NCBI GenBank assembly: GCA_015075375.1 | Contig: JABTUM010000001.1 | Span: 117,201 to 181,200 of the forward strand | Direction: 5' to 3' | Length of the DNA: 64,000 nt | Source: Planctomycetota bacterium | Lineage (GTDB): Bacteria; Planctomycetota; SZUA-567; H5-PLA8 | Shown here: in pieces, positions 9,860 to 51,579 of the stretch | Position numbering within the stretch: the stretch's first letter is position 1 | Layout: each line of letters starts with the position of its first letter | Program-made: the position numbers and the translations under genes | Notes under the pieces: generated by a model | What the model was told of the DNA's origin: nothing | Databases searched by the model: none | What the model saw: the letters and a program-made list of their open reading frames with translations, nothing else

Positions 9860-9868
9860 GCAACCATT

Positions 9869-9878
9869 ATGTATACAT
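9869..9878. promoter_or_regulatory. perfect palindrome ATGTATACAT in the divergent promoter region (candidate GntR operator)
   Basis: This 10-bp perfect palindrome sits in the 106-bp intergenic region between the GntR gene start (9859) and the large-protein start (9966). It contains the GT-N-AC core typical of GntR operators. Confidence 0.4.
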
Positions 9879-9965
9879 TGTGTTTCTACCGCAAGCGTTC
9901 GCCGCTCGGACTATACAGTGGAACGCCGCGAGTCGGCAGGCGCGGTCATCCTGAAGGAGTCCACC

Positions 9966-14354: not shown

Positions 14355-17300
14355 ACCGGGCATTCGAAGGGAGTTTCGCTTGATTCCGCGCGTGCGTCCT
14401 AACTGTCGGCTCGCCATGGTCTTGGGGGTATTCGCCTCGGCCGCGCTGGCGGGCGCGGAAATGGAGCGCATCGAATCGCTGGAGTCGCTCCAGTTCGACC
14501 CTGAGCGTGCGGTACTGCGAGTTGGACGGGACGGACGCGTCTGCTTGGCCTCGCCGAAGGAGCTTGAGCAAGGCTACGTATTGCTTATGGCGCCCGACGG
14601 ATCGAATCGCTCCGGACGCGAATTGGGCGCGTCCTTGCACATGGTCACGTCCAACGCGCGCGGGGAATTGGGGGCATGCCACCATTCCTGGCAGAATTCA
14701 GGACTGGCGACGTACGACGCCTCGGGCGAGCCGGTGGCGAAGAGTTCCGGAAAGTACACGCAGGTCGAAGCCGGGGAAGCGAGCGGCGACTTTTACTTCC
14801 GCAGGGAAAGCGAGATTGCGCGCGTTGCTCCGGACGGACAGGAAGTGCATGCCTACACGCCGCCGGGCGCGCTGTGGGGCCAGAAGCCCGCAGCCTTCCG
14901 GGTTCACGAAGGTTCCGAAGCGTTTTTCATCCTGGCGCAGGACCGCAAAATTCATTGCGTAGGTTTCGACGGCGCCGAACGCTGGAGCGTTCCCGCGCCC
15001 TTTAATCTGCATGCCGTACTTGCCCGCTGTGCGCTGGACCTGCCTTTCGATTTGAGTTCGGATGGCACGCTCTACGTGTACGACGCCAAGAGCTGCGCCG
15101 TTCAAGTCTATGCCAGCGGCAACGAAATCGGCGGGCCCGAGGCCCTGGGATCGGTCAAACTCCCCGCCGAGCAGCTGGGACCCAGCCCCGGCGCCGAGAA
15201 GCAAGGCGTCCTGCAACTCGCCGTTGCGGGCAGCGACATCCTTATCCGCCGGCGCTTGCGCACCGAACCCGGCGAACTTTTCCAGCGCTACGAACTGAAG
15301 TCAGGCAAGCTCCTGCAAACGGTCTGTTCACAGACCCTGCGCTTGAAAGCCGAGTACACCGAGAACGTCTGGCAAGCCGGACAAAGCGTACCCTTTACGA
15401 TACGCGCTATGCTCGGCGCCAATGCCTGCGCGCCGCGGTGGCGCGTCTACGCAGCGCCCTTCGGATCCACCGCGTGGCGGGAATTTCCCTGGTCCAACGA
15501 CCGGCTGGAACTTCCGGCCGATGCCAGCGGGCTGTATAGGCTTCGCGTCACCGCCTCCATCGCGCCGCGCCCCTTTTTCACCGTGGGGAAGGACATGCCC
15601 GCCGACCTGACGCTGGAAGGCGCCGTCGAGATTCGGCCGCCGCAGTCCAACGGATCGATCAGTGTGTACACACCGGCCAATCGCGAAGCCTATGCCCGCG
15701 GGGAATCCATTCCCTTCAAAGTCTTGGTGCGTGCCGCGGATCCCAAACCGCGCAAAGCAAGCGTGGTCCTGCAAGCCGGAGCGCAAACGCTGCACTCGTG
15801 GTCGCTCGATGCGCGGCCCGGCGAAGCGGCCGCACTCGAACTATCCTCTGCTTTCACGCGGGTGCTGGCCCCTGGGCGCTACGTACTGTCCGCGCGCGCG
15901 GAAGGATTGGCCCCATCCGATCAATGCCTCTGGATCGGTCCGGGGCCTTCCCGTCCGACTTTTCGCACCCTCGATTACCAGGACTACGGAGCGTTTCAGG
16001 ACCGTAAGTCTGCGGCCCATTTGTGGAACAGCGCCGACGCGGCCGCCGAAGAAGCCGCCGAACAGCGCCGGCTGGGCCGCTCGCTGCTGATCCAACGCCT
16101 GGGCGTGCCGCCCACCTCCGGCGATCCTTTTGTCTGGAAGCCCGACCACCTCGCACTCCTGGACGGCCTGCGCCAGCGCTTGGCCGCCGATCCACTGGCT
16201 GCCGCGCCCGAGAAAGCAGACCTTGCGCCGCCGCTTGCGCAGGCTTTGTCCCAGTTGGGCGCGCAAGGCGTCGAACATATGTCGATCCTGATGAACAACG
16301 ATGCCGGTCTGCCGCTCGGCACCGGATACGACAAGCGCAAGCCCGAGGAACTGCTGGCTCAACTCAAGGCCGTGACCGCATACGTGAAGGAGTTCCCCGC
16401 CTTCCGCGGCTGGACCTGGGCCGCCAACTGGTGGGTCTTTGCCAAGCGCGGAGCCAAGGCCGGGCGCACGCCCGAAGAACAAGCGGCTTACAAAGCCGCG
16501 TTGGAGCGCGCCCAAACCACCGGCGCGTGGGATCCTGTCCTCGATACGGTCTGCGACGTTCGCCTGAGTTTTGCCGTGGAGGCTCAGGATCTGTTCAACG
16601 CCGCGTTGCGCGAACTGGCGCCGAAGGCCGTGACCGCCGTCTCCGGTCCCTTTCGCAACGTGGAGTGTTACCCGCCCGTCACCTTTAACAATGTGGACGA
16701 AGTGGATTTGCAGGCGCAGTTCGAGCAGATTTCTTTGCCCTACCATGCAGCCTTCGCGGTCGACTTTTACAAACGGCCGGGCAAAGACGTGCTCTCCCAT
16801 CCCGAACTGGGCAACGACCTCGGCACCGGCGATCAATTCCTGCCCAACTCGTTCATGAGCATCGCGCGCGGTTCGAATTCCTCGGGATTCGCCAGCGGAT
16901 ACGGCTACCGGGAACCCGATCCACGCACGAATCAAGGCGGTTGTCCCAGCATCCAGCGCGCCTTTTTTCCTCTCATGGAAAGCTTGGGGCCTTGGCTTGC
17001 GACGCTCCGCGACGACGACCGCGTGGCCATCGTCGCCTCCGCACGCATGCTGAAGACCGATAAATGGCATCGCCTGACGGGGCTGCACTTCGGCCGGCTG
17101 TTCGAGGCCTGGGTCTCCTGCATGTTTGCGCACCACCCGGCCCGCATCGTTTTCGCGGAGGACGCGTCCGCCGATCTGCTGGCGCGATTCAAAGCCATCC
17201 TGGTGGTCGACCAGCGCTTCGAGTTGGAGCCGGCGTTGGCCGGCGCGCTGAAGGCCGCACAAGCGAAGGGCGTAAAGATCCTCCACGATTCCGGCTGCCT

Positions 17301-19782
17301 TGAGTCGGCGGTCAAAGGATTCACGCCGCTGGGTTTCGCATTCAATCGGTTCGAAAACGATCCCTCCCCCGCCGCCGACGATGCCGCGTATTGGCGCATG
17401 CCGCAGTGGGCCAAGGAGCATGCCCACGCACTTCGCAAAGCATTGGCGGGCGCCGTCGAACCCATCGCGGAACTGGATGCACCCGACGTATGGGTCACTG
17501 CGCGTGCAGCAGGCGATGCGCGCTTTCTGTATGTCGTCAATCACACCCATCCGCCGTTGCCTCCCGAGCAACTTTGGCGCATGAGTCTCTACCTCACGCA
17601 CCGGCTCCCGTTGACCATCCCGTTGCGCACGGATACGCAGGGCCGAGCCGTCTACGAGCTATTCGCTCAAGGCCAGATGCCGGCCGAAAACGGTACGCTG
17701 CAGGCCGATCTGCGCGGCGTTCCCGGCCGGATTTTCGCGTTGCTCCCGAAACCGGTCGGCGGCGTGCTGCTGCGCGGACCCGAGCGGGCGCGAGCGGGCC
17801 AAGCCATCGCCTGGAGCGCCCATGCCCGTGGTGAAGACGGTGAGCCGTTAAACGCAAGTCTGCCCCTCCTGCTTCGCCTGCTGGACGGCAACGGTCGGAC
17901 GATCGAAGAGCGCCCCGCCGTCTCTGGCCAGATGGACGCACAAGGCGAGTTCACGATTCCTTGGGGCTTCGAAGGCGCGTCGGTCACGCTGGAAGCCCTC
18001 GAGCGCTTCAGCGGCAAGGCCAGCCGGTTGGTAATCGCCGTGGAACCCGCGGCCGGCGCGTTTACGGAGCTTCCCGCGGCAGCCGCCGCGCGAGACGGAT
18101 CGCCCGACGCTTCGCCGCGGCCCGCGCCCGAAACGGCTTTCGGTCCGCACCTGCGAGACGTCGCTGTTTCCCGCGACGGCGCGACCGTGCTGATCAATGC
18201 TTTCAACTGGGATCGTAACGCGTACCTGATAGACGCGGCCACCGGAGCCACCAAGACGCAAGTTCGCCTGGGGCATTATTTCGCCTTTGAGCCCCAAGTT
18301 TTGGAGCGCGGATTTGCCGTACGCGGCTTCGATTTTCAATCGCCCGAAGGCTATCACTTGTACCTGCTCGGTTCCGACGGTGCGGCCGAGCGGCGTTTCG
18401 CGCTCCCCGCGTATCCCAAGCGTTTGCCATGGCGCCACCTGCCGACGTTGCTGCGCGACCGCATCGACAATTTCGCAACCGCACCGGACGGTTCTTGGGT
18501 CGCCGCCGCGGGCGACCTGGGACTGGCCGTTTGGAGCCGCGATGGCGCGTTGCTTTGGAGTCAGGAATGGTGGAAGACCGAACGGCGCGACGTCCGGCTA
18601 TTCGCGCCAGACGCCAAGCACCTGTACGTGATCGGTGCGTCCAAACTGGAATCGTATGAGGCGTCGAGCGGTAAGCCGCTCCATCCGCCGCTCGATCTGG
18701 GCGGAGTCGGAGAGGTAACGGAGGTGATCTCGAATCCAGACGGCCGAACGCTCGCGCTGGGCGCACCGGGAAACGGCGGGCAGATTTTGGTACTTCGCGA
18801 TCGCCAGATTATTCTGCGCTACCCGTCGCCCTTCAGCGAATTGGCACTCTCGCCCGATGGCACGGCCTTGGCCGTCACGCGCATGGACAGCCTGCAGTGG
18901 GTTGGCATCGACCAGGGGCTGCGCTGGACCTACCGCGGCGATGCCCCGCTGCGCGCTCCTCGCTTCAGCCCCGACGGCGTGCGGCTCGCCTGCGCGACGG
19001 ATCTCGGCACGCTTTGCGTCATGGAACGAGAAGGCCGCGTGCTGCTCGAACGCGACCTGGGCGCACTCTGCGTTCCTGCCTGGCTGCCTGATGGCGACTT
19101 GGTTCTGGCATCGTGGATGGGTTCCGTCCAGCGCCTGGACGGCGAGTACCGGCCGCGCTGGACCATGAATCTAAAGCCCGACACGATCGACCTGCGCACC
19201 CGCCTCCTTGAACCGGACTCCACTCCCACGGCACGCATCGAAACCTGGACCAACGCAGCCCCTTCCAACGCAGACCTCACGCCGAACCTCCTGGCCGCGC
19301 ACCCGGTAACCGTAAAATCGTCCTGGGGCAAGCCCCTGAACCACGAACCCGAACTGCTCTGGGACGGAAAAGCCGACCCCGCTTCCGATCCATGGGTCGA
19401 TTACTCGATTCTTTCGCACCTGGCCAAATCCGGCCCGCCGCCGCATATCACTCTGGCCTTCAACCAGGACAAGGTACGCGTGACCGGCATCGCCCTGTTC
19501 GAAGATCCAGCGCACCCCGCCTCATGGCTGCGCGACTGCTCGATCGAAGTGTGGGATCTGGAGAAAAACATCTGGGTGCGCGTGCAGGATTGTCTTTCGA
19601 ACGCGGCGCGGCATACCCATCTCTTTGCCAAGCCCGTGGAAACGAATCAGATCAGGCTGGTGCTGCCATCTTTGAGTTGCGGAAACGTGCGGCTGACTGA
19701 ATTGGTCTTGCTCGGCGAGCGCGTCGGGCCCTATGCGCCACCGGGCAAGAAACCCAAAAAGCGCGGCAAAAACGCGCCGTAG
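14335..19782 (+). CDS. large secreted protein (about 1790-1815 aa), paralogous in architecture to the upstream gene, with a C-terminal F5/8 type C (discoidin)-like domain
   Basis: A hydrophobic N-terminus LAMVLGVFASAALAGA is present. The start could be 14335 (20-nt overlap with the previous gene) or 14416. Beta-propeller-like repeats (SPDGTALAV, SPDGVRLACATDLGTLCV) are followed by a C-terminal jelly-roll segment WVDYSIL..IRLVLPSL. Domain calls are tentative. Confidence 0.6.
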   Translation: MRSARREPGIRREFRLIPRVRPNCRLAMVLGVFASAALAGAEMERIESLESLQFDPERAVLRVGRDGRVCLASPKELEQGYVLLMAPDGSNRSGRELGASLHMVTSNARGELGACHHSWQNSGLATYDASGEPVAKSSGKYTQVEAGEASGDFYFRRESEIARVAPDGQEVHAYTPPGALWGQKPAAFRVHEGSEAFFILAQDRKIHCVGFDGAERWSVPAPFNLHAVLARCALDLPFDLSSDGTLYVYDAKSCAVQVYASGNEIGGPEALGSVKLPAEQLGPSPGAEKQGVLQLAVAGSDILIRRRLRTEPGELFQRYELKSGKLLQTVCSQTLRLKAEYTENVWQAGQSVPFTIRAMLGANACAPRWRVYAAPFGSTAWREFPWSNDRLELPADASGLYRLRVTASIAPRPFFTVGKDMPADLTLEGAVEIRPPQSNGSISVYTPANREAYARGESIPFKVLVRAADPKPRKASVVLQAGAQTLHSWSLDARPGEAAALELSSAFTRVLAPGRYVLSARAEGLAPSDQCLWIGPGPSRPTFRTLDYQDYGAFQDRKSAAHLWNSADAAAEEAAEQRRLGRSLLIQRLGVPPTSGDPFVWKPDHLALLDGLRQRLAADPLAAAPEKADLAPPLAQALSQLGAQGVEHMSILMNNDAGLPLGTGYDKRKPEELLAQLKAVTAYVKEFPAFRGWTWAANWWVFAKRGAKAGRTPEEQAAYKAALERAQTTGAWDPVLDTVCDVRLSFAVEAQDLFNAALRELAPKAVTAVSGPFRNVECYPPVTFNNVDEVDLQAQFEQISLPYHAAFAVDFYKRPGKDVLSHPELGNDLGTGDQFLPNSFMSIARGSNSSGFASGYGYREPDPRTNQGGCPSIQRAFFPLMESLGPWLATLRDDDRVAIVASARMLKTDKWHRLTGLHFGRLFEAWVSCMFAHHPARIVFAEDASADLLARFKAILVVDQRFELEPALAGALKAAQAKGVKILHDSGCLESAVKGFTPLGFAFNRFENDPSPAADDAAYWRMPQWAKEHAHALRKALAGAVEPIAELDAPDVWVTARAAGDARFLYVVNHTHPPLPPEQLWRMSLYLTHRLPLTIPLRTDTQGRAVYELFAQGQMPAENGTLQADLRGVPGRIFALLPKPVGGVLLRGPERARAGQAIAWSAHARGEDGEPLNASLPLLLRLLDGNGRTIEERPAVSGQMDAQGEFTIPWGFEGASVTLEALERFSGKASRLVIAVEPAAGAFTELPAAAAARDGSPDASPRPAPETAFGPHLRDVAVSRDGATVLINAFNWDRNAYLIDAATGATKTQVRLGHYFAFEPQVLERGFAVRGFDFQSPEGYHLYLLGSDGAAERRFALPAYPKRLPWRHLPTLLRDRIDNFATAPDGSWVAAAGDLGLAVWSRDGALLWSQEWWKTERRDVRLFAPDAKHLYVIGASKLESYEASSGKPLHPPLDLGGVGEVTEVISNPDGRTLALGAPGNGGQILVLRDRQIILRYPSPFSELALSPDGTALAVTRMDSLQWVGIDQGLRWTYRGDAPLRAPRFSPDGVRLACATDLGTLCVMEREGRVLLERDLGALCVPAWLPDGDLVLASWMGSVQRLDGEYRPRWTMNLKPDTIDLRTRLLEPDSTPTARIETWTNAAPSNADLTPNLLAAHPVTVKSSWGKPLNHEPELLWDGKADPASDPWVDYSILSHLAKSGPPPHITLAFNQDKVRVTGIALFEDPAHPASWLRDCSIEVWDLEKNIWVRVQDCLSNAARHTHLFAKPVETNQIRLVLPSLSCGNVRLTELVLLGERVGPYAPPGKKPKKRGKNAP

Positions 19783-19812
19783 TCGGCACCGTAGCCCTAG
19801 TCCCGAAAATGA

Positions 19813-19845
19813 AAAAGCCGGCGGGTTGTAACCCGCCGGCTTTCG
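19813..19845. terminator. bidirectional rho-independent terminator between the convergent large-protein gene and cspA
   Basis: The hairpin AAGCCGGCGGG-ttgtaa-CCCGCCGGCTT has a T-tract (TTTTTCATTTT) on the minus strand downstream of cspA. Confidence 0.6.
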
Positions 19846-19872
19846 GCATAGTGCCCGTGAGTGATAGATGCG

Positions 19873-20082
19873 TTAGCCGGCGACGACGCGCACGCGAGCA
19901 GCCTTCGGACCCTTATCGGACTGGACGGTTTCGAACTCGACCGCCTGGCCCTCTTGGAGGCTCTTGAAACCCTCGCTCTGGACCTCGCTGAAATGAACGA
20001 AGAGATCCTTCCCGCCACCATCGGGCGTGATGAATCCGAACCCCTTCTGATCGTTGAACCACTTGACCTTACCGAGAGCCAT
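19873..20082 (-). CDS. cspA: cold-shock protein, CspA family
   Basis: The 69-aa protein [34 protein letters not shown].. contains the RNP1 and RNP2 motifs. A long 5' UTR lies upstream. Confidence 0.9.
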
Positions 20083-20513
20083 TGACTGGCCTCCAACTAA
20101 ATTCTTACGCTTCCTGGCTATCCATCACCACGGACAGATACTAGGCCTGAAGCATCGTCATTGACAATAGGGTACGCGGGGGCCAGACACAAACGATTTT
20201 CCAAATATTCGAAAGAGCAAAATTCGGGTCTATGTCCCGAACCGCGTCCGAAAATAGCCTGAGAATCGCGGAAAATTGCCCTTTTCAGGAGTCCGCCTTG
20301 CCCCCTCATTATCCACATCCGCCCCACGCAGAAGCGGCGCACCTGAAAAAATCACGCCCATTCCAGAGATGCCGACTGCCTTTAGACCCAATGGGCTATA
20401 GCCATTGCTCCATGCGCCCAACGGCCGTCCCGGAACCGCGCTTAAACGGGTACGATTTTTTGTACCCACCCACCCTCAAAAAAGCGGCTTGCATGAGACC
20501 TAGAATACGAATT

Positions 20514-21026
20514 TTACCCCAGACTCAGCAGCCAATTTAGACCCAAGGCTCCGGTTACAGCCCAGCCTGCGTAGTGCAGCGTCGCCGCGGCGCGGTTCAA
20601 GCGTGGATGGCTTGGCCAGCGGATCGCGCAAAGACGATACAAGGCGGCCACGGCAAAGAAGAAATAAAGCAAGGGCCCCATCCGGTGGGATTGAAGAGCG
20701 CCCAAGAGGTCGCCTTGAGTCAGACGCACGAAAGACCGGCTCAGTCCGCAGCCCGGACAATCGAGGCCCACCAACCGCTGGCTTAGGCATAGCGCAGGAA
20801 TGGAATGACCCGCGATCGACAGTCCACCGCCCCCGGCTTCGTATTTAAATAGTAATGGGGTCAGAAGCAGGACCAAGCAGAAGCAGAGTATCGTGAAATG
20901 ATCGGTGCGGCTCTCGCCGCCGCCCGAATAGCGAAGCGAAAGACCCCAGAACGCCGACCGGCGCGCAGGGAGGGAATCATCCGGCACGCGCGGCTCGAGC
21001 TTTCTCGATGCATCCGTGGCAGGCAA
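20514..21026 (-). CDS. DUF2752 domain membrane protein (last gene of the Ubl operon)
   Basis: The CPGCGLSRSF motif is diagnostic of DUF2752, and hydrophobic helices are present. The annotated 5' end overlaps the E2 gene by about 50 nt, so the true start is probably internal and non-ATG. Confidence 0.45.
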   Translation of the reverse strand: MPATDASRKLEPRVPDDSLPARRSAFWGLSLRYSGGGESRTDHFTILCFCLVLLLTPLLFKYEAGGGGLSIAGHSIPALCLSQRLVGLDCPGCGLSRSFVRLTQGDLLGALQSHRMGPLLYFFFAVAALYRLCAIRWPSHPRLNRAAATLHYAGWAVTGALGLNWLLSLG

Positions 21027-21888
21027 AATCTTCCTCTCCGCTCTTCATGCGAACTTTCTTGACGTGGTCCAGACACGCGCTGGCGCCGCAAACCCGGCAC
21101 GCCACCAAGCAATCGTGGCAGCGACCGGCTTCACAGACCGCACAATGTCCCGCGTGCTCGGAGCAGACCGCTTGTTGACATGCCGCGCAGCGATAGCCGC
21201 ATTTGGCGCAGACGGATCGTTTGCAGGTCGAACAGGTGACCAGATCGCACTTCAGGCAGGTTAAGCCTCCACAAACGGGACAGCTCATCACGCAATTTTC
21301 GCACGCCACATGCAGATTCGTACACGCCTGCATTTCGCTGGGATCGCCGCGCTTGCCGCAGTTCGCGCACGTGTCGCCCACCACCGCCGAACCGTCTTCG
21401 CGCCGCCCCGTCGCCTCGCCGACCGACAGCAGCGCGGAAAAATCCGTCGTGTCCAGCGGAAGACGATCCTTGTTCTCCACGGCCCATTTGGCGGCTTCGC
21501 CATTCAGAGGGCTCTTGATGTTATAGGACTGAAAACTCAGCATCTCCGCGATCCGCACGACCAGATTGGCCAGCGACTCGCCGGCCGCCCAGTGGTCACC
21601 GATACAGATGGCGTGCGGCGCGATATTGGGATGAAAGACCGGGGTCAGCATGCGGCATTGCGGCGCCATGCGCGGATAGCTGCCCGTCAGCGTAATCTCG
21701 ATCTGAAACTGATTGCGGATCTGGAAGCCGCCGTCGAGACGCTTCTCCATGCCCGTGACCAGATACTCGAGCTGGTACTTCTCCGGCGGATTGCCCAGCG
21801 TCTTCTTGATGCGAATGCGGGAATCCTTGGTGAAGAAACTGCTGAGCTTGTCGTAATCGGCCTTGAGGCGCCGCAGCCGGACACTCAT
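20977..21888 (-). CDS. ubiquitin-conjugating enzyme (UBC/E2)-fold protein with C-terminal Cys-rich multi-CxxC extension
   Basis: The N-terminus RLRRLKADYDKL is followed by the E2 active-site block PVFHPNIAPHAICIGDHW. This is the HPN motif with a Cys 7 residues downstream, as in eukaryotic E2s. LNGEAAKW matches the E2 LNxEAAxxY motif. The C-terminal roughly 130 aa carries at least 12 CxxC pairs. The start ATG overlaps the stop of the upstream protease gene. Confidence 0.8.
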   Translation of the reverse strand: MSVRLRRLKADYDKLSSFFTKDSRIRIKKTLGNPPEKYQLEYLVTGMEKRLDGGFQIRNQFQIEITLTGSYPRMAPQCRMLTPVFHPNIAPHAICIGDHWAAGESLANLVVRIAEMLSFQSYNIKSPLNGEAAKWAVENKDRLPLDTTDFSALLSVGEATGRREDGSAVVGDTCANCGKRGDPSEMQACTNLHVACENCVMSCPVCGGLTCLKCDLVTCSTCKRSVCAKCGYRCAACQQAVCSEHAGHCAVCEAGRCHDCLVACRVCGASACLDHVKKVRMKSGEEDFACHGCIEKARAARAG

Positions 21889-23183
21889 GGCGTCTCCTTT
21901 TCGGTGAGGCTCAGCCAGCGCTCCTGCTGCCCGGCGTCGAGCAATTTCAACAAGGTCATCGTACTGATCGCGAAGCTCAGACCTTCGGCCACCTGCTTAT
22001 CTTCCGTCAACGTGTTGATTCCCACCAAATCGCCCTGCTTCGTGTACAAACCGCCGCCGCTGTTCCCCGAATTGATCGGCGTCTGAGTCTGATACAGTTC
22101 GACGCCGTGCGGCCCCCCCTCCATGCGGCGCAGGCCGGAGATCGATCCCTGCGTGTAACTCCAGCTCAAGCCCATCGGATTGCCCACCGCAAACACGTCT
22201 TCACCGATCCCCACCGGTTCCCGGGAAACCTTGATCTGTGCATAGCGCTCGAGTGCGATCACGGGGCAACTTAAAATCACCAAATCGACGTCGCCTTCGG
22301 CTTTCCACTGAATCTCGGCCTTGCTCGATTCGCTCGTGTAGAAAATGACTTCGATCTCGCCCGACTTCGCTTCGCCGATGACATGCCGGTTGGTCAGAAT
22401 GTACGCGGTGTGATCGACATGCTTGAGGATCACGCCGGAACCGTAGCTCTGCACCTCGGCCGAACCGCCCACCGCAACCACCACATTCGCCCGCATCGCG
22501 TTGCCGATGGGCGCCGGCATGCGCGCCAGGTGGTCTTCGGACGGCATGCTCTCGTAAAAGTCGTTATTGATTTTCACCAATTGCTGCTGGCGGCTGAGCT
22601 GTCCGTACAGCACGACAAAGTAAGCGATCACCAAGGCAACCGGCACAAGCGTCGCACCGACGGCCGTAGCCAGCCCAGAAATGCGGTTCTTGGGATTGTT
22701 GATCCGCAATAACGCCACGACGCCGACGCCGATCGCAGCGAACGCCATGAACATGCCCAGGACCAGAAGCTGCATATTGGCTTGGATCGCGCCCACCAGG
22801 CCCGCCAGACTCAAAATCGCCAGCGCCACGCCGGTCCAGGCCATGCGGCTGTGGCGTTCGGGAGGAGGCGGAAGAAAAGCCGCGGCCGCCGCGGCTCCCC
22901 CGGGCGACCGAGGGCGCGGAGGCGCCAACGGCGCGCTAAGGACTTCCTGTTCCGAGAGCACGATATCCGCCGGACGAGCGGGGTTATCCATGCGCACCGC
23001 TTGGTCGCAATGGTACGACGAACAACCGCGCTTATGCGCCCAGCACGTCTCGTGATGAATGCTTCCGCAGGACGGGCAGGAAATGATCAACTGGCCGGCC
23101 GTAACCGTTTCCTGGCAAAATGGACACGTATTGCCCGCATGAAACAGGCTGGCCAAAACCGGATCGGGCGTGCTTGTGGCCAT
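21885..23183 (-). CDS. membrane-anchored trypsin-like (S1/DegP-type) serine protease with N-terminal C4HC3 RING/PHD-like zinc finger
   Basis: The N-terminal CPFC-x12-CPSC-x4-H-x2-C-x6-C-x4-C finger is followed by TM helices. The protease domain has His (TNRHVIG), Asp (DVDLVIL) and Ser (GNSGGGL). The start is trimmed to MATSTPD, which overlaps the previous stop by 1 nt. Confidence 0.8.
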   Translation of the reverse strand: MATSTPDPVLASLFHAGNTCPFCQETVTAGQLIISCPSCGSIHHETCWAHKRGCSSYHCDQAVRMDNPARPADIVLSEQEVLSAPLAPPRPRSPGGAAAAAAFLPPPPERHSRMAWTGVALAILSLAGLVGAIQANMQLLVLGMFMAFAAIGVGVVALLRINNPKNRISGLATAVGATLVPVALVIAYFVVLYGQLSRQQQLVKINNDFYESMPSEDHLARMPAPIGNAMRANVVVAVGGSAEVQSYGSGVILKHVDHTAYILTNRHVIGEAKSGEIEVIFYTSESSKAEIQWKAEGDVDLVILSCPVIALERYAQIKVSREPVGIGEDVFAVGNPMGLSWSYTQGSISGLRRMEGGPHGVELYQTQTPINSGNSGGGLYTKQGDLVGINTLTEDKQVAEGLSFAISTMTLLKLLDAGQQERWLSLTEKETP

Positions 23184-23809
23184 CAATCGAATACCGCCAA
23201 CAGGATCATGATCACGATCAGCAGGCTTGCGATGCCCACCCCGCACCACAACAACGCTCTAAGCGTAGTGGGCAAGCGCCGATAGTCGACTCCCATCAAG
23301 CTCCCGCTTTGGATCAGGATCAGGCACAATACCAACCCCAAGGGCGCCAAACAGGCCGCGGCACAAAGCAGGAAAAGCATCACGGATTTGTTGCGCGCCG
23401 CCGCGTACTCGGTGCCCTCGTACGAACGGCTGCGGTACTCGTCCTTCGATATCAGATCCCGCGAGGCGAATACGGCGCCGCAGAATCGGCACTTCAGCGC
23501 TTCGGAGCGAATCTTCCGTGCGCACGATGGACACGGCTTCTCGTCTCCCCAGGCATTGGAAACCGGTTGGTCCTGATGGGAGGGTTTGATCGTTGGCGGA
23601 GCGGACTTGCACCCGTAGGCCGAACAACCGCGATTCTCGGACCAGCAATCGGCGTGGAATACAAGCGAGCAGGACGGGCAATTCAAGACCTGCTCGCCGC
23701 CCAGAATGGACGACTGGCAGATCGAACATTGCTTACCTGCCACCTCCGCGTCAGCCGAATAGACCGGCGGCTGCGGAAAGGCGGAAGCGGCGTGCGGCGA
23801 TGCAGCCAT
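23183..23809 (-). CDS. membrane protein with C4HC3 RING/PHD-like zinc finger plus zinc ribbon (candidate E3-like)
   Basis: The finger is CSIC-x12-CPSC-x4-H-x2-CW-x5-C-x4-C. A zinc ribbon CPSC..(12)..CRFCG follows, then about 3 TM helices at the C-terminus. Confidence 0.7.
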   Translation of the reverse strand: MAASPHAASAFPQPPVYSADAEVAGKQCSICQSSILGGEQVLNCPSCSLVFHADCWSENRGCSAYGCKSAPPTIKPSHQDQPVSNAWGDEKPCPSCARKIRSEALKCRFCGAVFASRDLISKDEYRSRSYEGTEYAAARNKSVMLFLLCAAACLAPLGLVLCLILIQSGSLMGVDYRRLPTTLRALLWCGVGIASLLIVIMILLAVFD

Positions 23810-23819
23810 GCCCTGAATC

Positions 23820-24512
23820 CTACCTTTCGTTCAACAATGCCACGCGAATCAGGATATGAACCAGCGTGACGGCCACCGTAAGCAATACGAGTTTCACGCC
23901 TTTCTTTTTGCCTTGAATCATCCAGACAATTCCGCAAATGCAGGCGATCCAACCGCACAGGATTCCGAAAAGAATTTCCGAGCCGCTCAGCTTTTCGTCT
24001 TCGGCCGCCTGGCGCTTCATCCGGTCCTGCCGAAAGCGCGCGGCCTTGTCGAGCAACTCGCCGCAATAGCGGCACTTGCGCGCTTCTTTCAGCACGCTTT
24101 CGCCGCAGTAGGGGCACGGCTTCATGGCCGCGGTATTCGTGCCCCCGGGTGCGCCCTGCGGAACATTGGCCGCGGGGGCGGCGGCCATCTGCAGCGCACT
24201 GGGACAGTCGGCATTCCGGCACGCGCCGTGCGCTTCGTGGCAGGCTTGGTGCATGGTTCCTTGGCACTGCGGGCAGTTCCAGACATCCTGACCCAACTCG
24301 ATCCCCACGCTGCAACCTGGACAGATGCGGCCGGCGAGGACTTTGTTGGCTTTCATGCGTTCGGGAAAGGAGGGCAGGCCGGCATCCTGCGCGGCCGCAA
24401 ACCCCACGCCGAGATTCTCCATACCGCAATTAGGGCACTTCTTCTTCGGCCCTAAAGGTCTGGCCTCCTGTCCGCACTGAGGACACGTAAAGAAACCCGG
24501 TTGCGGCATCAA
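23820..24512 (-). CDS. membrane protein with two zinc ribbons and a C4HC3 RING/PHD-like zinc finger (candidate E3-like), paralogue of 23183..23809
   Basis: The order is CPQCG..CPNCG, then CPGC-x12-CPQC-x4-H-x2-C-x6-C-x4-C, then CPYCG..CRYCG, then a TM helix. Confidence 0.7.
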   Translation of the reverse strand: MMPQPGFFTCPQCGQEARPLGPKKKCPNCGMENLGVGFAAAQDAGLPSFPERMKANKVLAGRICPGCSVGIELGQDVWNCPQCQGTMHQACHEAHGACRNADCPSALQMAAAPAANVPQGAPGGTNTAAMKPCPYCGESVLKEARKCRYCGELLDKAARFRQDRMKRQAAEDEKLSGSEILFGILCGWIACICGIVWMIQGKKKGVKLVLLTVAVTLVHILIRVALLNER

Positions 24513-24552
24513 TAGATTCTCCTGAATCGTTCCATTAGGGCACCCGTCGCTC

Positions 24553-25653
24553 TCAGGCGCCTTGGCCCTTTTCGTGATAGCGCAATACGGTCTCCCCGAT
24601 GGATACCGTATCCCCGGGTTGGAGCAGGTACTTCTCGACCTTCTTCCCGTTCACGAACACGCCCTTCTCACTGCGTTCGTCCTCTATCATGTACCGCCGG
24701 CCGGTTCGCTTCACCGAGGCATGCAGCGGCGCCACATCGGGATCCTTAAAGAGGTAGATGTCGGACTTCGGCGCCGAGCCGATTCGCATCGACTGCTTGA
24801 AGAGCACAAAATGTTTCCCGGCCAGCGGCCCCTTGAGCATCTGGAACCAGGCTTCCTTGGAAATGTTCTCGAAGATGCCGATGAACAAGCCCACGAACAA
24901 ACCCACCGCCAGCACGCCCACGCAACGGCTCATCGACGCATCGCCGGACGCGAAGTCGATCCAGCGGCTGATCGGATCGAAGAAGAGTCCGCCCAACAAT
25001 CCACCGATCAACCCGCCGACGAATCCGTTTAGGGTCAGTTGTTTGGACTTCAGCGCGATGCCCAGACCCAAGCCCGCCCCCATGGAAATGATGGCCCATG
25101 CCAGACCGCGGCCGCACATGAAGATGAAGAAGTTAATGCCCTTGATCGGAAACTCGTCCGGCTTGAATCCGCCGGGCGGAACCTGGATGTTGCTGGTGGC
25201 CACGTTGGAGGTGATGCTGAAGACGATGTCCGCCACGACGGTGGTCAGGACCGTCACCCCCAAGCCAACCCCCAATCCAACGGCGCCGCAATAGGCCGCC
25301 TGCCGGACGTTGCGATTGGCGATGCCATACATGACCCCGATCGCCAGTCCCAGTACCCCGGCTACGGGGCCGAACAGGATGTAGTCGGATACGAAGGGAA
25401 TCGCGATCTGGTCGGTCTCGTCGTTAAAGTATGGCTCGAAGGCTGCCCAGACCGCCAATGCGCCCACGCTGCCCGCCACCGCGTAGTAAAAGATGGGATT
25501 GAAATAAAGCGGCGTCTTGATTTCTGCGATAGGTTCGTCGGACTGCGGCTGCAGCGAACGCTGCAGATTGATCATGTCGTCGATGCCCGGATCTTTCAGT
25601 TCGTCGTCGGTAATAATGATATCGGCCATCGGCCACCTTCCTTCTTGTACCAT
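24553..25653 (-). CDS. polytopic membrane protein with C-terminal FHA (phosphothreonine-binding) domain
   Basis: Multiple Gly-rich TM helices are followed by the FHA motif GSAPKSDIYLFKDPDVAPLHASV..DERSEKGVFVNGKKV..GDTVSIG. Confidence 0.7.
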   Translation of the reverse strand: MVQEGRWPMADIIITDDELKDPGIDDMINLQRSLQPQSDEPIAEIKTPLYFNPIFYYAVAGSVGALAVWAAFEPYFNDETDQIAIPFVSDYILFGPVAGVLGLAIGVMYGIANRNVRQAAYCGAVGLGVGLGVTVLTTVVADIVFSITSNVATSNIQVPPGGFKPDEFPIKGINFFIFMCGRGLAWAIISMGAGLGLGIALKSKQLTLNGFVGGLIGGLLGGLFFDPISRWIDFASGDASMSRCVGVLAVGLFVGLFIGIFENISKEAWFQMLKGPLAGKHFVLFKQSMRIGSAPKSDIYLFKDPDVAPLHASVKRTGRRYMIEDERSEKGVFVNGKKVEKYLLQPGDTVSIGETVLRYHEKGQGA

Positions 25654-25684
25654 CCCGGGATCCCGGCGCGTCCCGATTCGTCCA

Positions 25685-26992
25685 CTACGGAGACTTGGTT
25701 TCCGCTTCGGTCTTCGTCTTCTCGTCCGCGCTTTCCTTGCGCTCGGGGAAAAGCGCCTGGATCAAACCCGGATGCATGCGCGCCAGCGTCTCTTTGCATT
25801 CCGGATACAACCGCACTGCGGTCTCCACCAGTTGCTTCAAATGGCCCAGTTCGGCGGGCGAAAGCGATTCGAGATCGATGGGCCTTCCGCCCACGAGCAG
25901 CAACTCGCTCAAGCGCATGACGAAGAGCATGCCGACGTACGTCTCCAGGCGATCCTGCCGGTCGGCATTTTCGCGCACGCGTCCCGACAGCGTCTGCTTC
26001 ATGCTCATCGCTTCGGACATATCTTTTCGAAACGTCTTTCGAGGTTTGTCGTACGCCAACTTCAGCGTCGCCAACTGCGTGGAGAGATCCTTGATACCTT
26101 GCTCGGCCGCCGCGGGATCTTTCTTCGCCAACGCCTGCTCGACGGATTCCACCTTGTCGCCCAATGCGGCGAAATCCTTCGAGGCCATCGCGTTCATGCC
26201 CGCGAATTCAAGCACCGAGTAAATCTCGGACTCCAAGCCCTCCAGCGCCGTGGCGCGCAGGCTGTGCATCATCAAGTTCTGCCCGAGCAGGAATCCGCAC
26301 AGAAAGAAAACCACGAGAAAGAAGAGGTGGGACAGCCCCATCGGAACGCGCGGTTCTTCGGCCGGCCGCGAGGCCGCCGCGTCGGGCGAGCGGCGTTCCT
26401 CGGCCGCGCTCCCGCCCGAAGCCTCGTGCATCGAGAACGGCTCCGCCGCGCCCGTCACCAACTTCACTTCGTCGCTCCCCACCCAGTACCGCGCCAGCGG
26501 CAGGCAGTTCCCGCGGACCCAGGCGAAGCAGCCCTCTTCTTTGCGCTTCGTCTCGATCACCACCGCCACATGGAAGGGCGCATTGAAGTAATTTTCCTGG
26601 ATGAACATATCCATCTTGGAAAGAAAGACGCCGAAACCTGGGTGCGTGTGATACCAGCCGACGATCTTGCGGTCCGAATATTGCTTATCGAAAATGCCGT
26701 AAATATGTTGCCACGCCTGATGCGTAAGGGTCACCTGAGCGCCGTAGTTCTTGGTGTCTTCGCCTTCGATCACGGCGGTCACGTACAGGAATGGGCCTTG
26801 CGCATCGCGCTTCACGTCGCCCACCAGCACGCCCATGATCTCTACTTCGTCCGTCGTCGCCGCGTGCGCCTTCATGCGACGATAGGCTTCGGGCGAAAAG
26901 CAGACGCGATACTCGGTCTCGATTTTGGCCGGAAAGGCTCCTTCGGGAGCATCTTTCTTCTCGACCTGCCGATAGTCCAACGTGCCGGCCAT
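25685..26992 (-). CDS. JAB/MPN (JAMM) metalloprotease fused to a TM helix and long coiled-coil C-terminal region (candidate deubiquitinase/Ubl-processing peptidase)
   Basis: The conserved Glu (EVEIMGVLVGD) and the JAMM motif HTHPGFGVFLSKMD (H-x-H-x7-S-x2-D) are both present. The start is trimmed to MAGTLDYRQ, which overlaps the E1 3' end by about 20 nt. Confidence 0.8.
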   Translation of the reverse strand: MAGTLDYRQVEKKDAPEGAFPAKIETEYRVCFSPEAYRRMKAHAATTDEVEIMGVLVGDVKRDAQGPFLYVTAVIEGEDTKNYGAQVTLTHQAWQHIYGIFDKQYSDRKIVGWYHTHPGFGVFLSKMDMFIQENYFNAPFHVAVVIETKRKEEGCFAWVRGNCLPLARYWVGSDEVKLVTGAAEPFSMHEASGGSAAEERRSPDAAASRPAEEPRVPMGLSHLFFLVVFFLCGFLLGQNLMMHSLRATALEGLESEIYSVLEFAGMNAMASKDFAALGDKVESVEQALAKKDPAAAEQGIKDLSTQLATLKLAYDKPRKTFRKDMSEAMSMKQTLSGRVRENADRQDRLETYVGMLFVMRLSELLLVGGRPIDLESLSPAELGHLKQLVETAVRLYPECKETLARMHPGLIQALFPERKESADEKTKTEAETKSP

Positions 26993-27009
26993 ACCGCTGT
27001 TCCTTGCCG

Positions 27010-28182
27010 TTAGTTCGCCAAATCGCCCAAGACTTCGCCCGCATCCCCATCGAATAAGTACGAAATCGTGCGCTCCCCGTTGCGCGCGGTGACCACGTCG
27101 TACGGCGGAACGCCCCACGCGGCCATGCTCATGTCTTCATGCCCCGGCTCGAGGCCCAAGGTCGACGTGGTCTCCGGCGCGCGCATCTGGCCGCACTTGG
27201 GGCAACGCCCTTCCGCTTCGGTCACCTTACCCAACGAGCGAAAACACGCCTCCGTCTCGCCGCAAGCCGCGCAGCTAAGCCCGGTGACAAGATCGCGCGC
27301 AAGCTGCAGCACCGTCTCCGGCCCCAGCGCGCTGCGGGCGCGTTCGAGCAGCGCGCCGAGGGTCACCTCCGCCACGCCCCCGCCCAACGGTTCCAGTTCG
27401 GCAAAGCGCTCGTGCGCAAAGCACTCGGGCTTGCGCGTATACGTCACCAGGTAGGACTCGCCCGCCAGACCGTTGAACACGAAACCGCGACCGGCGATCG
27501 TCTCCAGTCCGTGGAGCAGCTTGACGGCCTCCTGCATCTGGAAGCCCGCGATGATGCTGGCCGTCGTCGGCGTGGTCGGTACTTTTCCTTCCTGAAGTTG
27601 TTCGCGCGTCAGCAGAGCGCACGAACGGCGGCTCTCGAGCATCTTCCAGTCGGTCTCGTTCATCGTGCACTCGTAGCACGGCCCATCCGGTGCAAAGACG
27701 CGCGCGACACCGTTCAGCACCTCGATCGCTCCGTCGATCCAGGTCTTGCCGGCAAAGAGGCTGGAACCGTTGATCGCGACTCGTGCTTCGCGGTTGTCGA
27801 GCCCGCCCAGGATCACATCGGCCCAAAAATAGACGCCCAGGCCCAGATCGTGGACCACGTTGCCTACGAACGGCTTCGCTTTGATGAGCGGATACAGTTC
27901 GCGCGCTGCGCGGCAGGCCACCTCGGCCTTGGGCTGCCCGCGGTCTGATTCTCTAAAGAGCGGCGAGCGCGTGAGATTGGAAAGCTCGATCCGGTCCATA
28001 TCCGCGACGAGGACGCGGCCGATGCCGAACAGCGCACAGTTCTTGACAAGCTCGTTGCCCAGCGCACCGGCGCCAATCACCAGCACCTTTGCGCGGCTCA
28101 GGCGCTCCTGCTCCCACCATGAAATGAGTTCGAAACGGCTGAAGCGGCTGTCGGCCGAGTCGTCCAGATTGACTTTGATCAA
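27010..28182 (-). CDS. E1-like ubiquitin-activating enzyme (ThiF/MoeB/HesA superfamily) with C-terminal zinc-ribbon extension
   Basis: The Rossmann/adenylation motif is RFSRFELISWWEQERLSRAKVLVIGAGALGNELVKNCALFGIGRVLVADMDRIELSNLTRSPLF. CxxC pairs (GPCYEC, CAACGE..CPKCG) are present. The gene apparently starts at a TTG. Confidence 0.8.
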   Translation of the reverse strand: MIKVNLDDSADSRFSRFELISWWEQERLSRAKVLVIGAGALGNELVKNCALFGIGRVLVADMDRIELSNLTRSPLFRESDRGQPKAEVACRAARELYPLIKAKPFVGNVVHDLGLGVYFWADVILGGLDNREARVAINGSSLFAGKTWIDGAIEVLNGVARVFAPDGPCYECTMNETDWKMLESRRSCALLTREQLQEGKVPTTPTTASIIAGFQMQEAVKLLHGLETIAGRGFVFNGLAGESYLVTYTRKPECFAHERFAELEPLGGGVAEVTLGALLERARSALGPETVLQLARDLVTGLSCAACGETEACFRSLGKVTEAEGRCPKCGQMRAPETTSTLGLEPGHEDMSMAAWGVPPYDVVTARNGERTISYLFDGDAGEVLGDLAN

Positions 28183-28206
28183 GCCGCCAGCCTCCCAAGG
28201 CCGCGC

Positions 28207-28497
28207 CTAGACGCGCGCGCCGCCCGCCGTAATCTCCGGCTGCAGACGCAACACATCTCCTTCACGGATGCCGGCCTGGGTCAGCGTCTCCTCATCGAGC
28301 AACTGCCGCCCGCTGGCTTTATGGTGAAACTTGTAACTCATCAACTGTCCGTCCGGACTGTGGCGCGGAAGGTTCATACGATCCACCAGCAGCACGATGA
28401 TGCGATTGACCGACGCTTGGCCCGGCAGGCTGACCACGGCCTTCTTGTTGCCGGTCGCGTCCCAGACTTCCACACTGATGTTGCCTGCATCGCTCAC
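28207..28497 (-). CDS. ubiquitin-like beta-grasp protein ending in GG followed by a 3-residue tail (precursor-like)
   Basis: The 96-aa protein ends ..DVLRLQPEITAGG-ARV-stop. Its length and hydrophobic periodicity (ISVEVWDATGNKKAVVSL..) fit a beta-grasp fold. It lies immediately upstream of the E1. Its start ATG overlaps the stop of the previous gene (ATGA). Confidence 0.65.
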   Translation of the reverse strand: MSDAGNISVEVWDATGNKKAVVSLPGQASVNRIIVLLVDRMNLPRHSPDGQLMSYKFHHKASGRQLLDEETLTQAGIREGDVLRLQPEITAGGARV

Positions 28498-29537
28498 GAA
28501 CCGACCTCCCGGCGCCTGGCCAGCGCCTTGTCCAGATCGCCTTCGATGGAACCGTCGAGCAGGTACCAGCGCCCTTCGTGGCGTATGAACGCCTTGCGTA
28601 CGACCACATCTTCCTTCTGCTGGAAAATCAGGATCAGGATTACCGCGATCCAGAGGCTCAGCAGGATGCTAAGCATCAGGAGGCTGTTGTAGGTGGTCAA
28701 TTTGAGGTTCGCCTCGACCACCGCCACCCCGTCGGTTTCCGGAAGAATGACGCGCACCTTATTGAGCTGGTAGTAGCGCACCCAATTGTTCTTACCCTGG
28801 AAGATCTCTTTCCAATAGGCGGCATACGATTTCACGTCCGAAAACGGTCTTCGCTGTGGGTGATTGGGAATCTTCGGATTCTTGAAGGCAATCGACGGCG
28901 GATGCTCCGCTTGTCGCGCCGGCGGAATCAACGCGGCGAACGCCTTTCCGGTACGACCCGTCTTTACCGCCATGAAGAAGCGCTTGTACGCCTGTATCGG
29001 GCCTTCGGACTCCTGCAGGTGCATCGCATTGCGGTCGTTGAAAAACGAAACGAGCGTCGGGATGCCGAAACAGAGTCCCAATATGATCCCAAATGCCAGC
29101 GCAGGCTCGCCGTTACGCGACATCGCTCCGAATGCCAGCAGCGCCAGGCTCGCAAGAGTCAGTACGCCCAGCGCGATGGTCTTGCCCGACCACATGCCGC
29201 CACGCAACACGTCGTCCTGAGCCGGAGAATGCCGAGCCAACTCGCCACGAATCAGATCCAGCGCCTTCGCCAGTTCCTCGTTCGACATGGCCGTCGAAGC
29301 CAGGGACTCGCCGCAATGAGGGCACCTGCGGGCGCCGGCGGGAATGGGCTCCGCGCAGGCAGGGCAGGAAATCGTGCCGGCGTTGGGCGGAGCGGTCGGT
29401 GCATGAATCGGCGGTACGACAGGAGCTTCCGTCGCCAGAATCTGCGCGCCGCAGACTTGGCAGGTAACCGGCAGCCCTGCCAGCTCATCCTTGACGCGAA
29501 ACGTTTTCCCGCACGTACATTGGACCGAAATAGGCAT
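28494..29537 (-). CDS. membrane protein with N-terminal tandem zinc ribbons (first gene of the Ubl operon)
   Basis: The N-terminus has CTCG..CQVCG and CPAC..CPHCG ribbons. The second resembles ribbons in the two RING-like membrane proteins. Two TM helices follow. The start is trimmed to the ATG at 29537 (MPISVQ). Confidence 0.55.
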   Translation of the reverse strand: MPISVQCTCGKTFRVKDELAGLPVTCQVCGAQILATEAPVVPPIHAPTAPPNAGTISCPACAEPIPAGARRCPHCGESLASTAMSNEELAKALDLIRGELARHSPAQDDVLRGGMWSGKTIALGVLTLASLALLAFGAMSRNGEPALAFGIILGLCFGIPTLVSFFNDRNAMHLQESEGPIQAYKRFFMAVKTGRTGKAFAALIPPARQAEHPPSIAFKNPKIPNHPQRRPFSDVKSYAAYWKEIFQGKNNWVRYYQLNKVRVILPETDGVAVVEANLKLTTYNSLLMLSILLSLWIAVILILIFQQKEDVVVRKAFIRHEGRWYLLDGSIEGDLDKALARRREVGS

Positions 29538-29898
29538 TCGCCGCCGTCCTGTATGGAATCCGTTCAAGCACTATAAAATTTGTGTGCGGCCATGCTATAG
29601 GACGTATAGGTAGTAGCAAGAGCATCCGACTTCACATGTAAGCAAAGCACCGTTTGCATCCAGCCTCGACTGCACACGTGAAGGCTTGCCGCAGCTTGAA
29701 GAAGTAGGTCCCGAATCAAGCCGTCGGCACAGCTCGCAAAATTATTATGGGATTGTCTCGCCCGCCGCGACAAGTATCTGCCTTTCGAACCGATTCGCGC
29801 ACGCAAGGCCCGCAGACGGTCATTTTCGCGCGTGAGCCCTTTCCTGTTTTTCAGGATGTGATAGGTTTCCGGAATCAAAAATTAAAAGGAGTTCCCTT

Positions 29899-50811: not shown

Positions 50812-51265
50812 ACCACGCAGCAAGCGCCGCGAGATTGCTCCGCGCCTCACCGGCCGCGCACGCGCAAGCCTCCACCCATTCGTCCATCGCCACGGGCGCG
50901 CCCTTGCCCGCAGCCCCGCAGGGGCGACATACTAAAGCGAGGGGCGCGAGCCCCTCGACCCAAGCACCCCTCTCCATCAGGAGCCCTGAAAGGGCGACCT
51001 AAAGCCACCCCGAACCGAAGAACTCCGAGCGCCTCACCGAGATCCTCCGCCGAACAGCCACGAGCGGATGCCGGAGAATGGAGGGCGCGGTAGCCGAACC
51101 GATCCACACATCACGCGCGGCCGATTCCCGCGCTCCCCGTCGTCGCACGCAGCGCTTCGCGCCCCTCCCACCCGCCTGCGTTCGTCTCTGCTATTCTACT
51201 TTTTCTTCGACGGCTTCTTCATCCCCTGTTCCGCCATGCGAAGAGTTTTTGCGTAGGACGGCGGG
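50812..51265. repeat. mosaic repeat unit (B-module + 3' half of A-module + linker + tail)
   Basis: Modules recur at 51580, 52274, 53505, 54403, 55345 and 56934. The unit contains GC hairpins GAGGGGC-gcga-GCCCCTC and GCCCC-tgc-GGGGC. Confidence 0.7.
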
Positions 51266-51271
51266 GCTACG

Positions 51272-51532: not shown

Positions 51533-51579
51533 TGTGCGAGCCTCACTTTTATTCCGTTAATGTTATATGTTTGAAGGAA

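Follow-up and report, generated by a model that had tools for sequence, protein, structure and literature searches.

Complete ubiquitin-type cascades with a RING E3 ligase are usually taught as a feature of eukaryotes (and of the Asgard and Aigarchaeota lineages). Bacterial versions were predicted in 2011, and the operon analyzed here is an intact, well-preserved specimen in which every component is found. It lies on a stretch of 64,000 nucleotides (nt) of contig JABTUM010000001.1, from a Planctomycetota bacterium, which as a whole is called the window below; the interval of main concern, 21885-24512, holds three co-directional minus-strand genes whose products each carry one copy of a cysteine-rich finger. 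The description of the family to which these fingers are assigned below, Prok-RING_1 (PF14446), gives it a gene neighbourhood that comprises a ubiquitin-like protein (Ubl), E1, E2 and JAB peptidase, and ascribes membrane helices to the bacterial versions. Burroughs, Iyer and Aravind reportedly defined the prokaryotic RING family and its operons in 2011 (in Mol Biosyst 7:2261), and are said to have proposed a YukD-like Ubl as the conjugated modifier.

Burroughs et al. 2011 is cited for related examples in Actinobacteria, Planctomycetes and Acidobacteria (PMC4197634), operons with RING E3s are described as still uncharacterised (PMC10557695), a review gives prokaryotic RINGs a C4HC3 ligand order and a lengthened insert within the final ligand pair (PMC11354881), and Aravind and colleagues propose that mobile E1/E2/(E3)/JAB operons are protein-level conflict elements (PMC3417536). 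The window operon shares with the Prok-RING operons the C4HC3 order and long last-ligand insert, the membrane anchoring, the Ubl/E1/E2/JAB neighbours and the presence of Planctomycetes among the phyla. A species-level scan (one genome per species) returned 410 stretches encoding relatives, from which 80 loci were kept. The Ubl, E1, E2 and JAB neighbourhood is found in the window and, together with the rest of the gene set, in 31 of the 37 loci with enough flank to judge completeness. The operon differs in nothing of kind from those already catalogued, and an E3-like reading of its fingers is supported, not new.

The srfp protein of Caldiarchaeum subterraneum is a small RING E3 encoded in one operon with E1, E2, Ub and Rpn11; the cascade has been reconstituted in vitro, Ile30 and Trp58 of srfp are needed for activity, and mutation of Ile30 abolished it (PMC5654768). 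The window operon resembles it in encoding a full cascade and in a Ubl made with a C-terminal tail that must be removed, and one finger class (that of p208, below) has an Ile at the equivalent loop-1 position and an invariant Trp next to ligand 6. Whereas srfp is described in the same source as a soluble RING-H2 protein with a conserved linchpin Arg69, the window fingers are of the C4HC3 type, anchored in the membrane, two or three in number and without a conserved linchpin, and they are accompanied by a YukD-like Ubl with a single terminal Gly. Bil, Bub and type II CBASS (Cap2/Cap3) also place E1/E2/JAB-type conjugation in one operon (PMC10557695, PMC11601596, PMC11601603). They are described in these accounts without a RING E3, Bub using oxyester intermediates, whereas the window operon has a separate canonical HPN...C E2, two or three RING proteins and mostly membrane components. 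PADLOC returned no system-level match for the operon and, of these components, only weak domain-level similarity for the E1 and the JAB, and the NCBIfam model 6A-MBL cap2_3 reached 40.7 bits against a cutoff of 320.

The three finger genes and their parts are as follows.

23820..24512, minus strand: p230, with a zinc ribbon, a RING, a second zinc ribbon and two membrane helices (Prok-RING_1 32.3 bits, Zn_ribbon_3 32.5 bits)
24204-24323, minus strand: RING of p230; ribbons at 24417-24500 and 24051-24125, helices at about 23826-23984
23183..23809, minus strand: p208, with a RING, a zinc ribbon and two membrane helices (Prok-RING_1 38.6 bits and motif match)
23609-23728, minus strand: RING of p208; ribbon at 23468-23542, helices at about 23189-23383
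21885..23183, minus strand: fusion of a RING, three membrane helices and a protease, 432 amino acids (aa) (Prok-RING_1 32.0 bits, Trypsin_2 74 bits)
23007-23126, minus strand: RING of the fusion; membrane helices at about 22605-22844, protease domain at about 22017-22442

A first-pass annotation of this DNA had claimed that the three proteins share a C4HC3 finger with identical spacing, and the claim holds exactly: the regular expression C..C-x12-C..C-x4-H..C-x6-C-x4-C matches once in each, and the fully written pattern is C-x2-C-x12-C-P-x-C-x4-H-x2-C-x6-C-x4-C in all of them. The finger of the fusion is CPFCQETVTAGQLIISCPSCGSIHHETCWAHKRGCSSYHC (residues 42-81 of a 454-aa open reading frame, ORF), that of p208 is CSICQSSILGGEQVLNCPSCSLVFHADCWSENRGCSAYGC (residues 28-67) and that of p230 is CPGCSVGIELGQDVWNCPQCQGTMHQACHEAHGACRNADC (residues 64-103). 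Their Prok-RING_1 scores all exceed the gathering threshold of 29.1 bits, with E-values of 1e-7 to 1e-9; hence the recurrence of the motif is not due to chance. No other Pfam model scores above its threshold for the fingers, RING_2, RING_11, PHD, C1 and FYVE all matching below theirs. We infer that the fingers are prokaryotic RING domains of the Prok-RING_1 family, of the binuclear C4HC3 treble-clef type and predicted to bind zinc. The ligand pattern is retained in orthologues, since all eight ligands are kept in 116 of the 120 best homologues of the fusion (protein clusters), 109 of them with identical spacing. An alignment of 53 fusion homologues shows no variation at six of the eight ligands and at least 90% conservation at the other two (the first two Cys), at Trp48 and at Tyr57; all eight ligands are invariant in a separate alignment of 43 finger sequences that includes the two paralogues. 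As had also been claimed, two of the fingers sit on small zinc-ribbon membrane proteins, p208 and p230 each having ribbons of the Zn_ribbon_3 or UPF0547 type and two C-terminal hydrophobic helices. These ribbons are separate four-Cys units outside the eight-ligand domain, and a pure zinc-ribbon identity of the fingers themselves is ruled out.

The three copies are not equally conserved. Within the loci kept, the finger occurs in 83 of 84 orthologous ORFs of the fusion and, with exact spacing, in 74 of 79 of p208, for whose orthologues the NCBI label is 'RING finger protein'; it occurs in only 22 of 96 p230-like ORFs. The RING of p230 is confined to the closer relatives (loci L001, L002, L005, L007, L009-L011 and L014), and loci of the Planctomycetaceae/Pirellulales type have p230-like proteins with ribbons only. 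Two RINGs thus form the conserved core, and the set of three paralogous fingers announced by the first-pass annotation is a subclade feature.

The finger was modelled with AlphaFold from the 43-sequence alignment, at a mean predicted local distance difference test (pLDDT) score of 85.7 that rises above 90 across the first 50 residues. The model shows a RING fold, with a treble clef, a central helix and known RING domains as its nearest neighbours: the closest are the E2-binding RING-H2 domains of ZNRF1, RNF12, RNF165, RNF38 and RNF13, and the top Foldseek matches are RNF13, RMR1, RNF12, RNF165 and ZNRF1, at E-values that are not significant for a domain so small. The likeness to RING-CH ligases that had been put forward stands for architecture only. 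In MARCH proteins, whose ligand order is C4HC3, two membrane helices come after an N-terminal finger; p208 and p230 share this ligand order and the two helices, but differ in ligand spacing and lack a RINGv match. Membership of the RINGv/RING-CH family is rejected on these last grounds, RINGv (PF12906) matching none of the three proteins at E <= 0.1. The RING-CH chain of Doa10 appears at only E = 0.2 when the family profile is compared with PDB sequences.

The argument for an E3-like role starts from position. A finger gene adjoins a UQ_con (E2) gene in nearly all loci, and a canonical E2 next door, within a complete Ubl/E1/E2/JAB operon conserved across many genomes, makes an E3-like role the best reading, as the first-pass annotation had suggested from the E2 neighbour. 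At the residue level, 82% of the p208 class have an Ile two positions past ligand 1, where canonical RINGs carry their E2-contact Ile and srfp its Ile30. A Trp directly follows ligand 6 in 100% of both the p208 and the fusion class, at +1 as against +4 in RING-H2 domains, and its equivalence to the E2-contact residue of the helix is unproven. From their gene context, the fingers would be expected to recruit the E2 and act as ligases.

Independent support for such a role comes from relatives outside the core arrangement, which carry the finger in other combinations. Some relatives of p208 are fusions of FHA, zinc ribbon, Prok-RING and two membrane helices, about 330-360 aa long (P0172-P0181), and at locus L085 (5158-6871) such an FHA-RING fusion gene is directly followed by one for a 203-aa UQ_con E2; no E1, Ubl or JAB was detected on that 11-kb contig. 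One of these fusions, P0176, has Ser in place of Cys as its sixth ligand. Across 1.84 billion representative proteins, a profile search found the finger in 7125 at E <= 0.001; some of these proteins hold up to five fingers in tandem, and others join the finger to WD40 propellers, ankyrin repeats, MshEN or DUF4190 (P0183-P0226). Such fusions of a binding module with a RING resemble the substrate-adaptor architectures typical of eukaryotic RING E3s.

The protease half of the fusion is equally well defined. Its domain matches Trypsin_2 (E = 2.5e-20, 74 bits), and the triad H267/D300/S375 is invariant in the 53 aligned homologues, which bears out the earlier statement that a RING-like finger is joined through a membrane segment to a trypsin-like protease with an intact His/Asp/Ser triad. 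The pairing had also been called unusual, which it is not: relatives occur in the 410 species-representative genomes, and nearly all of the 120 best protein clusters have both domains. Residues are numbered here on the 432-aa form, the 454-aa ORF being 22 higher (H289/D322/S397). This form most likely starts at the ATG at 23183: a database protein 100% identical to the fusion, from a Planctomycetes metagenome-assembled genome, is 432 aa long, and this ATG and the stop codon of p208 share one base, so that the GTG at 23249 is probably not the start.

Three features bear on which side of the membrane each half faces. Hydropathy gives three hydrophobic segments (residues 114-134, 136-158 and 170-193), and a crude count finds three in 76 of 113 fusion homologues, other counts tracing to length thresholds on merged hydrophobic runs, as in P0003, and giving no sign of another topology. 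The full-length AlphaFold model (pLDDT 90.7) has helices at 113-134 (kinked), 137-162 and 171-211, followed by the protease. In the family, net flank charge averages +2.6 ahead of the first helix, +1.8 in the loop joining the second and third, and +0.75 past the third. As to homology, the nearest solved structures of the protease domain are DegS, DegQ, DegP and HtrA, all extracytoplasmic enzymes; the best match is DegS-deltaPDZ, with target-normalised TM-scores mostly of 0.74-0.81 among the DegS-deltaPDZ chains listed. The NCBIfam DegS model aligns fusion residues 185-415 to DegS positions 14-244, spanning its membrane-anchor region, and since the alignment opens at residue 185, within the third helix, this helix and the protease together resemble a membrane-anchored DegS minus its PDZ domain. 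With the conserved triad, an identity of about 32% and a membrane helix directly before the protease, the fusion is thus close to DegS/HtrA (MEROPS S1C), from which it differs in its two extra membrane helices, its predicted cytoplasmic N-terminal RING and the lack of a PDZ domain: Pfam gives no PDZ match in the fusion, which ends about 20 residues past the protease domain. Against the NCBIfam DegS, DegP and HtrA equivalogs it scores 93-111 bits, far under their cutoffs of 408-470. Three membrane helices and a DegS-like protease predict that RING and protease lie on opposite faces of the membrane, a prediction on which several indirect lines agree. Most likely, then, the RING of the fusion would be cytoplasmic and its protease periplasmic. 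Eukaryotes offer a partial parallel in RNF13 and RMR1, PA-TM-RING proteins in which a luminal domain is paired with a cytosolic RING across the membrane; the trans-membrane pairing is alike, but the fusion has a catalytically intact serine protease in place of the non-catalytic PA domain, and the domain order is reversed.

The finger genes belong to a ten-gene operon (20514-29567, minus strand) whose reading frames overlap or nearly abut. Its other members, in the order of transcription, are these.

28494..29567, minus strand: first gene, zinc-ribbon membrane protein of 357 aa with three hydrophobic helices (Pfam DZR, Zn_Ribbon_1, Zn_ribbon_3)
28207..28497, minus strand: YukD-like Ubl of 96 aa, ending ...LRLQPEITAG-GARV (Pfam YukD, 38.6 bits against a cutoff of 27)
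27010..28182, minus strand: E1-like adenylating enzyme of the ThiF/MoeB family, 390 aa (Pfam ThiF, E = 1e-47; NCBIfam similarity to ThiF, MoeB, UbaA and Ube1)
25685..27118, minus strand: JAB/JAMM peptidase with one membrane helix and a C-terminal helical extension (Pfam JAB, 51.6 bits)
24553..25653, minus strand: multi-pass membrane protein of 366 aa with a C-terminal FHA domain (Pfam FHA and Yop-YscD_cpl, residues 272-359; hydropathy)
20977..21888, minus strand: E2 with a UBC fold and the active-site motif HPNIAPHAIC (Pfam UQ_con, 42.4 bits against a cutoff of 27)
20514..21026, minus strand: last gene, DUF2752 membrane protein (Pfam DUF2752, 56.5 bits)

Judged from their motifs, the operon enzymes look intact. 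HPNIAPHA[IV]C (HPN-x6-C) is present in all 73 E2 orthologues that scored above 60 bits, and the JAB motif HTHPGFGVFLSKMD (HxHx7Sx2D) is visible in the translation. The Ubl orthologues (L001-L081) share ...LRLQPEITAG, with a single conserved Gly and not Gly-Gly (the 3' end of the gene lies at 28207-28240); many stop exactly at that Gly, others run on for 1 to more than 10 residues, and in the window the tail is GARV. A conserved ...EITAG end with variable tails is consistent with exposure of the modifier's terminal Gly by the JAB peptidase. The end of the first gene overlaps the start of the Ubl gene by 4 nt, as does the start of the E2 gene the stop of the fusion, and the true start of the JAB protein is probably the Met at about 26992. 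Seven of the ten operon proteins are membrane proteins, whereas the E1, the E2 and the Ubl have no hydrophobic segments and should therefore be cytoplasmic. The hydrophobic helix of the JAB protein comprises ORF residues 260-278, and if its JAB domain is cytoplasmic, the C-terminal segment, about 190 residues long, would be outside the membrane.

We consider it probable that the fingers are prokaryotic RINGs on the cytoplasmic face of the inner membrane, the E3-like parts of a self-contained, membrane-embedded Ubl-conjugation operon, with the fusion protease in the periplasm. In such a scheme the YukD-like Ubl would be trimmed by the JAB peptidase to its ...EITAG end, activated by the ThiF-type E1 and handed to the Cys of the HPN-x6-C E2, and the membrane-anchored RINGs would bring the charged E2 to targets at the membrane. 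The FHA membrane protein would probably provide phospho-threonine-dependent recognition or control. RNF8, CHFR and Dma1 are E3 ligases that combine FHA and RING; relatives of p208 are fused alike, whereas the FHA domain of the window is on a separate membrane protein, and the likeness drawn here is one of domain types, from which phospho-dependent substrate recognition by the FHA domain is suggested by analogy. The fusion, for its part, would link an extracytoplasmic protease to the cytoplasmic conjugation machinery, and would not tag and degrade one substrate in one compartment.

Several observations weigh against this reading. Comparison of the family profile with PDB sequences yields a mixture of PHD, RING-H2 and C1 fingers, with the PHD finger 1wev first (E = 2.4e-6) and C1 domains close behind, and sequence alone thus cannot tell RING from PHD; C1_1 itself falls just under its threshold (23.7 as against 26.5 bits). 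A linchpin Arg or Lys after the last ligand is not conserved in the p208 or the fusion class. The residue there is E in 24%, K in 24% and A in 13% of the former, and A in 35%, S in 25% and D in 10% of the latter; in the window it is K in p208, D in the fusion and P in p230. The position two past ligand 1, moreover, is mostly His or Arg in the fusion class and not the canonical Ile, and we found no experimental study of the operon or of any member in the literature searched. Fingers of this kind might instead be PHD-, C1- or FYVE-like binders of peptides, of the Ubl or of lipid head groups, serving as scaffold only while the E2 transfers the Ubl without an E3, as in Bil and CBASS. We hold this to be distinctly unlikely, given that two structural methods both rank E2-bound RING-H2 domains first, that adjacency to a canonical E2 is strict and recurs in the independent two-gene pair of FHA-RING and E2, and that the p208 class retains both the loop-1 Ile and the invariant Trp. 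The profile searches proper divide, with the Pfam RING family as the sole model above threshold on one side and the PHD finger at the head of the PDB ranking on the other; structure and Pfam group the modelled finger with RINGs, and sequence by itself leaves PHD unseparated. The sidedness of the fusion is likewise drawn from indirect indications (helix count, charge bias, homology to periplasmic proteases), and the charge past the third helix is still slightly positive, so that the positive-inside rule alone leaves the topology unsettled. This, and the fact that both domains are intact and always fused in the family, would suit the idea that RING and protease share a compartment and a substrate, one polypeptide both tagging and degrading, as the first-pass annotation had envisaged. 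An odd number of membrane helices between the two domains makes this very improbable, as do the alignment of the protease and its preceding helix to the periplasmic, membrane-anchored DegS, the extracytoplasmic location of all close solved relatives in the HtrA family, the absence of hydrophobic segments from E1, E2 and Ubl, and a seven-Cys finger that is expected to require the reducing cytoplasm.

The role of the operon is a separate matter from the biochemistry of its fingers. Following the published hypothesis on mobile E1/E2/(E3)/JAB operons (PMC3417536, PMC10557695), the whole could be a conflict or anti-phage system, or a selfish element, in which RINGs steer the Ubl to invader proteins in a protein-level analogue of restriction-modification. 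Flanking genes do vary among loci, and copies from Verrucomicrobia, Victivallales and Anaerolineales (43-44% identity) are nearer to that of the window than those of Planctomycetaceae (32-36%), an order at odds with taxonomy that suggests horizontal transfer. Around four homologues, however, the neighbours seen have housekeeping functions, and neither integrases nor known defence genes are among them; PADLOC has no match for the E2, Ubl, RING and FHA proteins and only generic domain-level matches for the E1, the JAB and the trypsin domain. With seven of ten products in the membrane and part of the machinery facing the periplasm, envelope biology is fitted at least as well, and a defence role seems to us unlikely. 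A trans-envelope signalling or quality-control machine is a possibility that we entertain tentatively: a periplasmic HtrA-type protease mounted on a cytoplasmic RING E3, with a second (here a third) RING, an FHA reader and an E1-E2-JAB-Ubl cascade, would couple what befalls an envelope protein in the periplasm, such as being cleaved or bound, to Ubl tagging of the part of that protein in the cytoplasm. If this were true, the operon would be a bacterial counterpart of endoplasmic reticulum-associated degradation or of the DegS-RseP cascade, and the first endogenous RING E3 pathway demonstrated in bacteria. Points worked out in the present analysis are the probable placement of finger and protease in opposite compartments, the retention of the canonical Ile by p208-type but not by protease-fused RINGs, the FHA-RING fusions of some relatives and a Ubl ending in ...EITAG.

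The 410 relatives are mostly from Planctomycetota, the others belonging to Verrucomicrobia, Victivallales, Anaerolineales, Sumerlaeota and Riflebacteria. Among them are Lacipirellula limnantheis I41 and Aeoliella straminimaris ICT_H6.2, two strains in culture, which makes laboratory study feasible. The order Ubl-E1-JAB-FHA-(p230)-p208-RING-protease-E2-DUF2752 is found around four metagenome homologues (L001-L004), whose flanks are otherwise unrelated, and in most of the 80 loci. Orthologues of the first gene stand at the same position in L001, L007, L009 and L011, the FHA membrane protein is likewise kept in place in related loci, and the DUF2752 gene is kept downstream of the E2 in most. Three loci (L005, L050 and L068) have p230, p208, the RING-protease, the E2 and DUF2752, L005 also the FHA protein, and no Ubl, E1 or JAB was detected in at least 7.5 kb upstream; they may be encoded in another part of those genomes or have diverged beyond detection.

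Two parts of the operon proteins have no Pfam match. One is the C-terminal part of the JAB protein (25685-26330), about 190 residues after the helix. The other is the C-terminal half of the E2 (20977-21440), a tail some 150 residues long in which about 25 Cys mostly form CxxC pairs; among related loci this tail has either about 25 Cys or only four, and the version with about 25 is found in loci that also carry the p230 RING. A scan of 19800-30000 for promoters and terminators gave counts no higher than in shuffled sequence, and one promoter-like site upstream of the first gene (29773-29744, minus strand) and one terminator-like site past the last (20243-20221, minus strand) are weak evidence.

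Elsewhere in the window, a cold-shock protein gene (19873-20082, minus strand) is accompanied by a strong terminator-like hairpin (19844-19813), and very long ORFs of 1544, 1815 and 2430 aa lie beside the operon region (9720-19782 and 41600-48892). Four matches to the Rfam small RNA family Acido-Lenti-1 (43-46 bits, gathering threshold 37) occur at 50912-50957, 52575-52620, 53581-53626 and 55475-55520. The region around them (50842-56993, minus strand) is an array of repeated cassettes, with families of 294 nt, 190 nt and several of 60-76 nt spaced by 0.6-2 kb; its GC content is lower (0.53-0.57), its GC skew is strongly negative, and all its ORFs are shorter than 250 aa.

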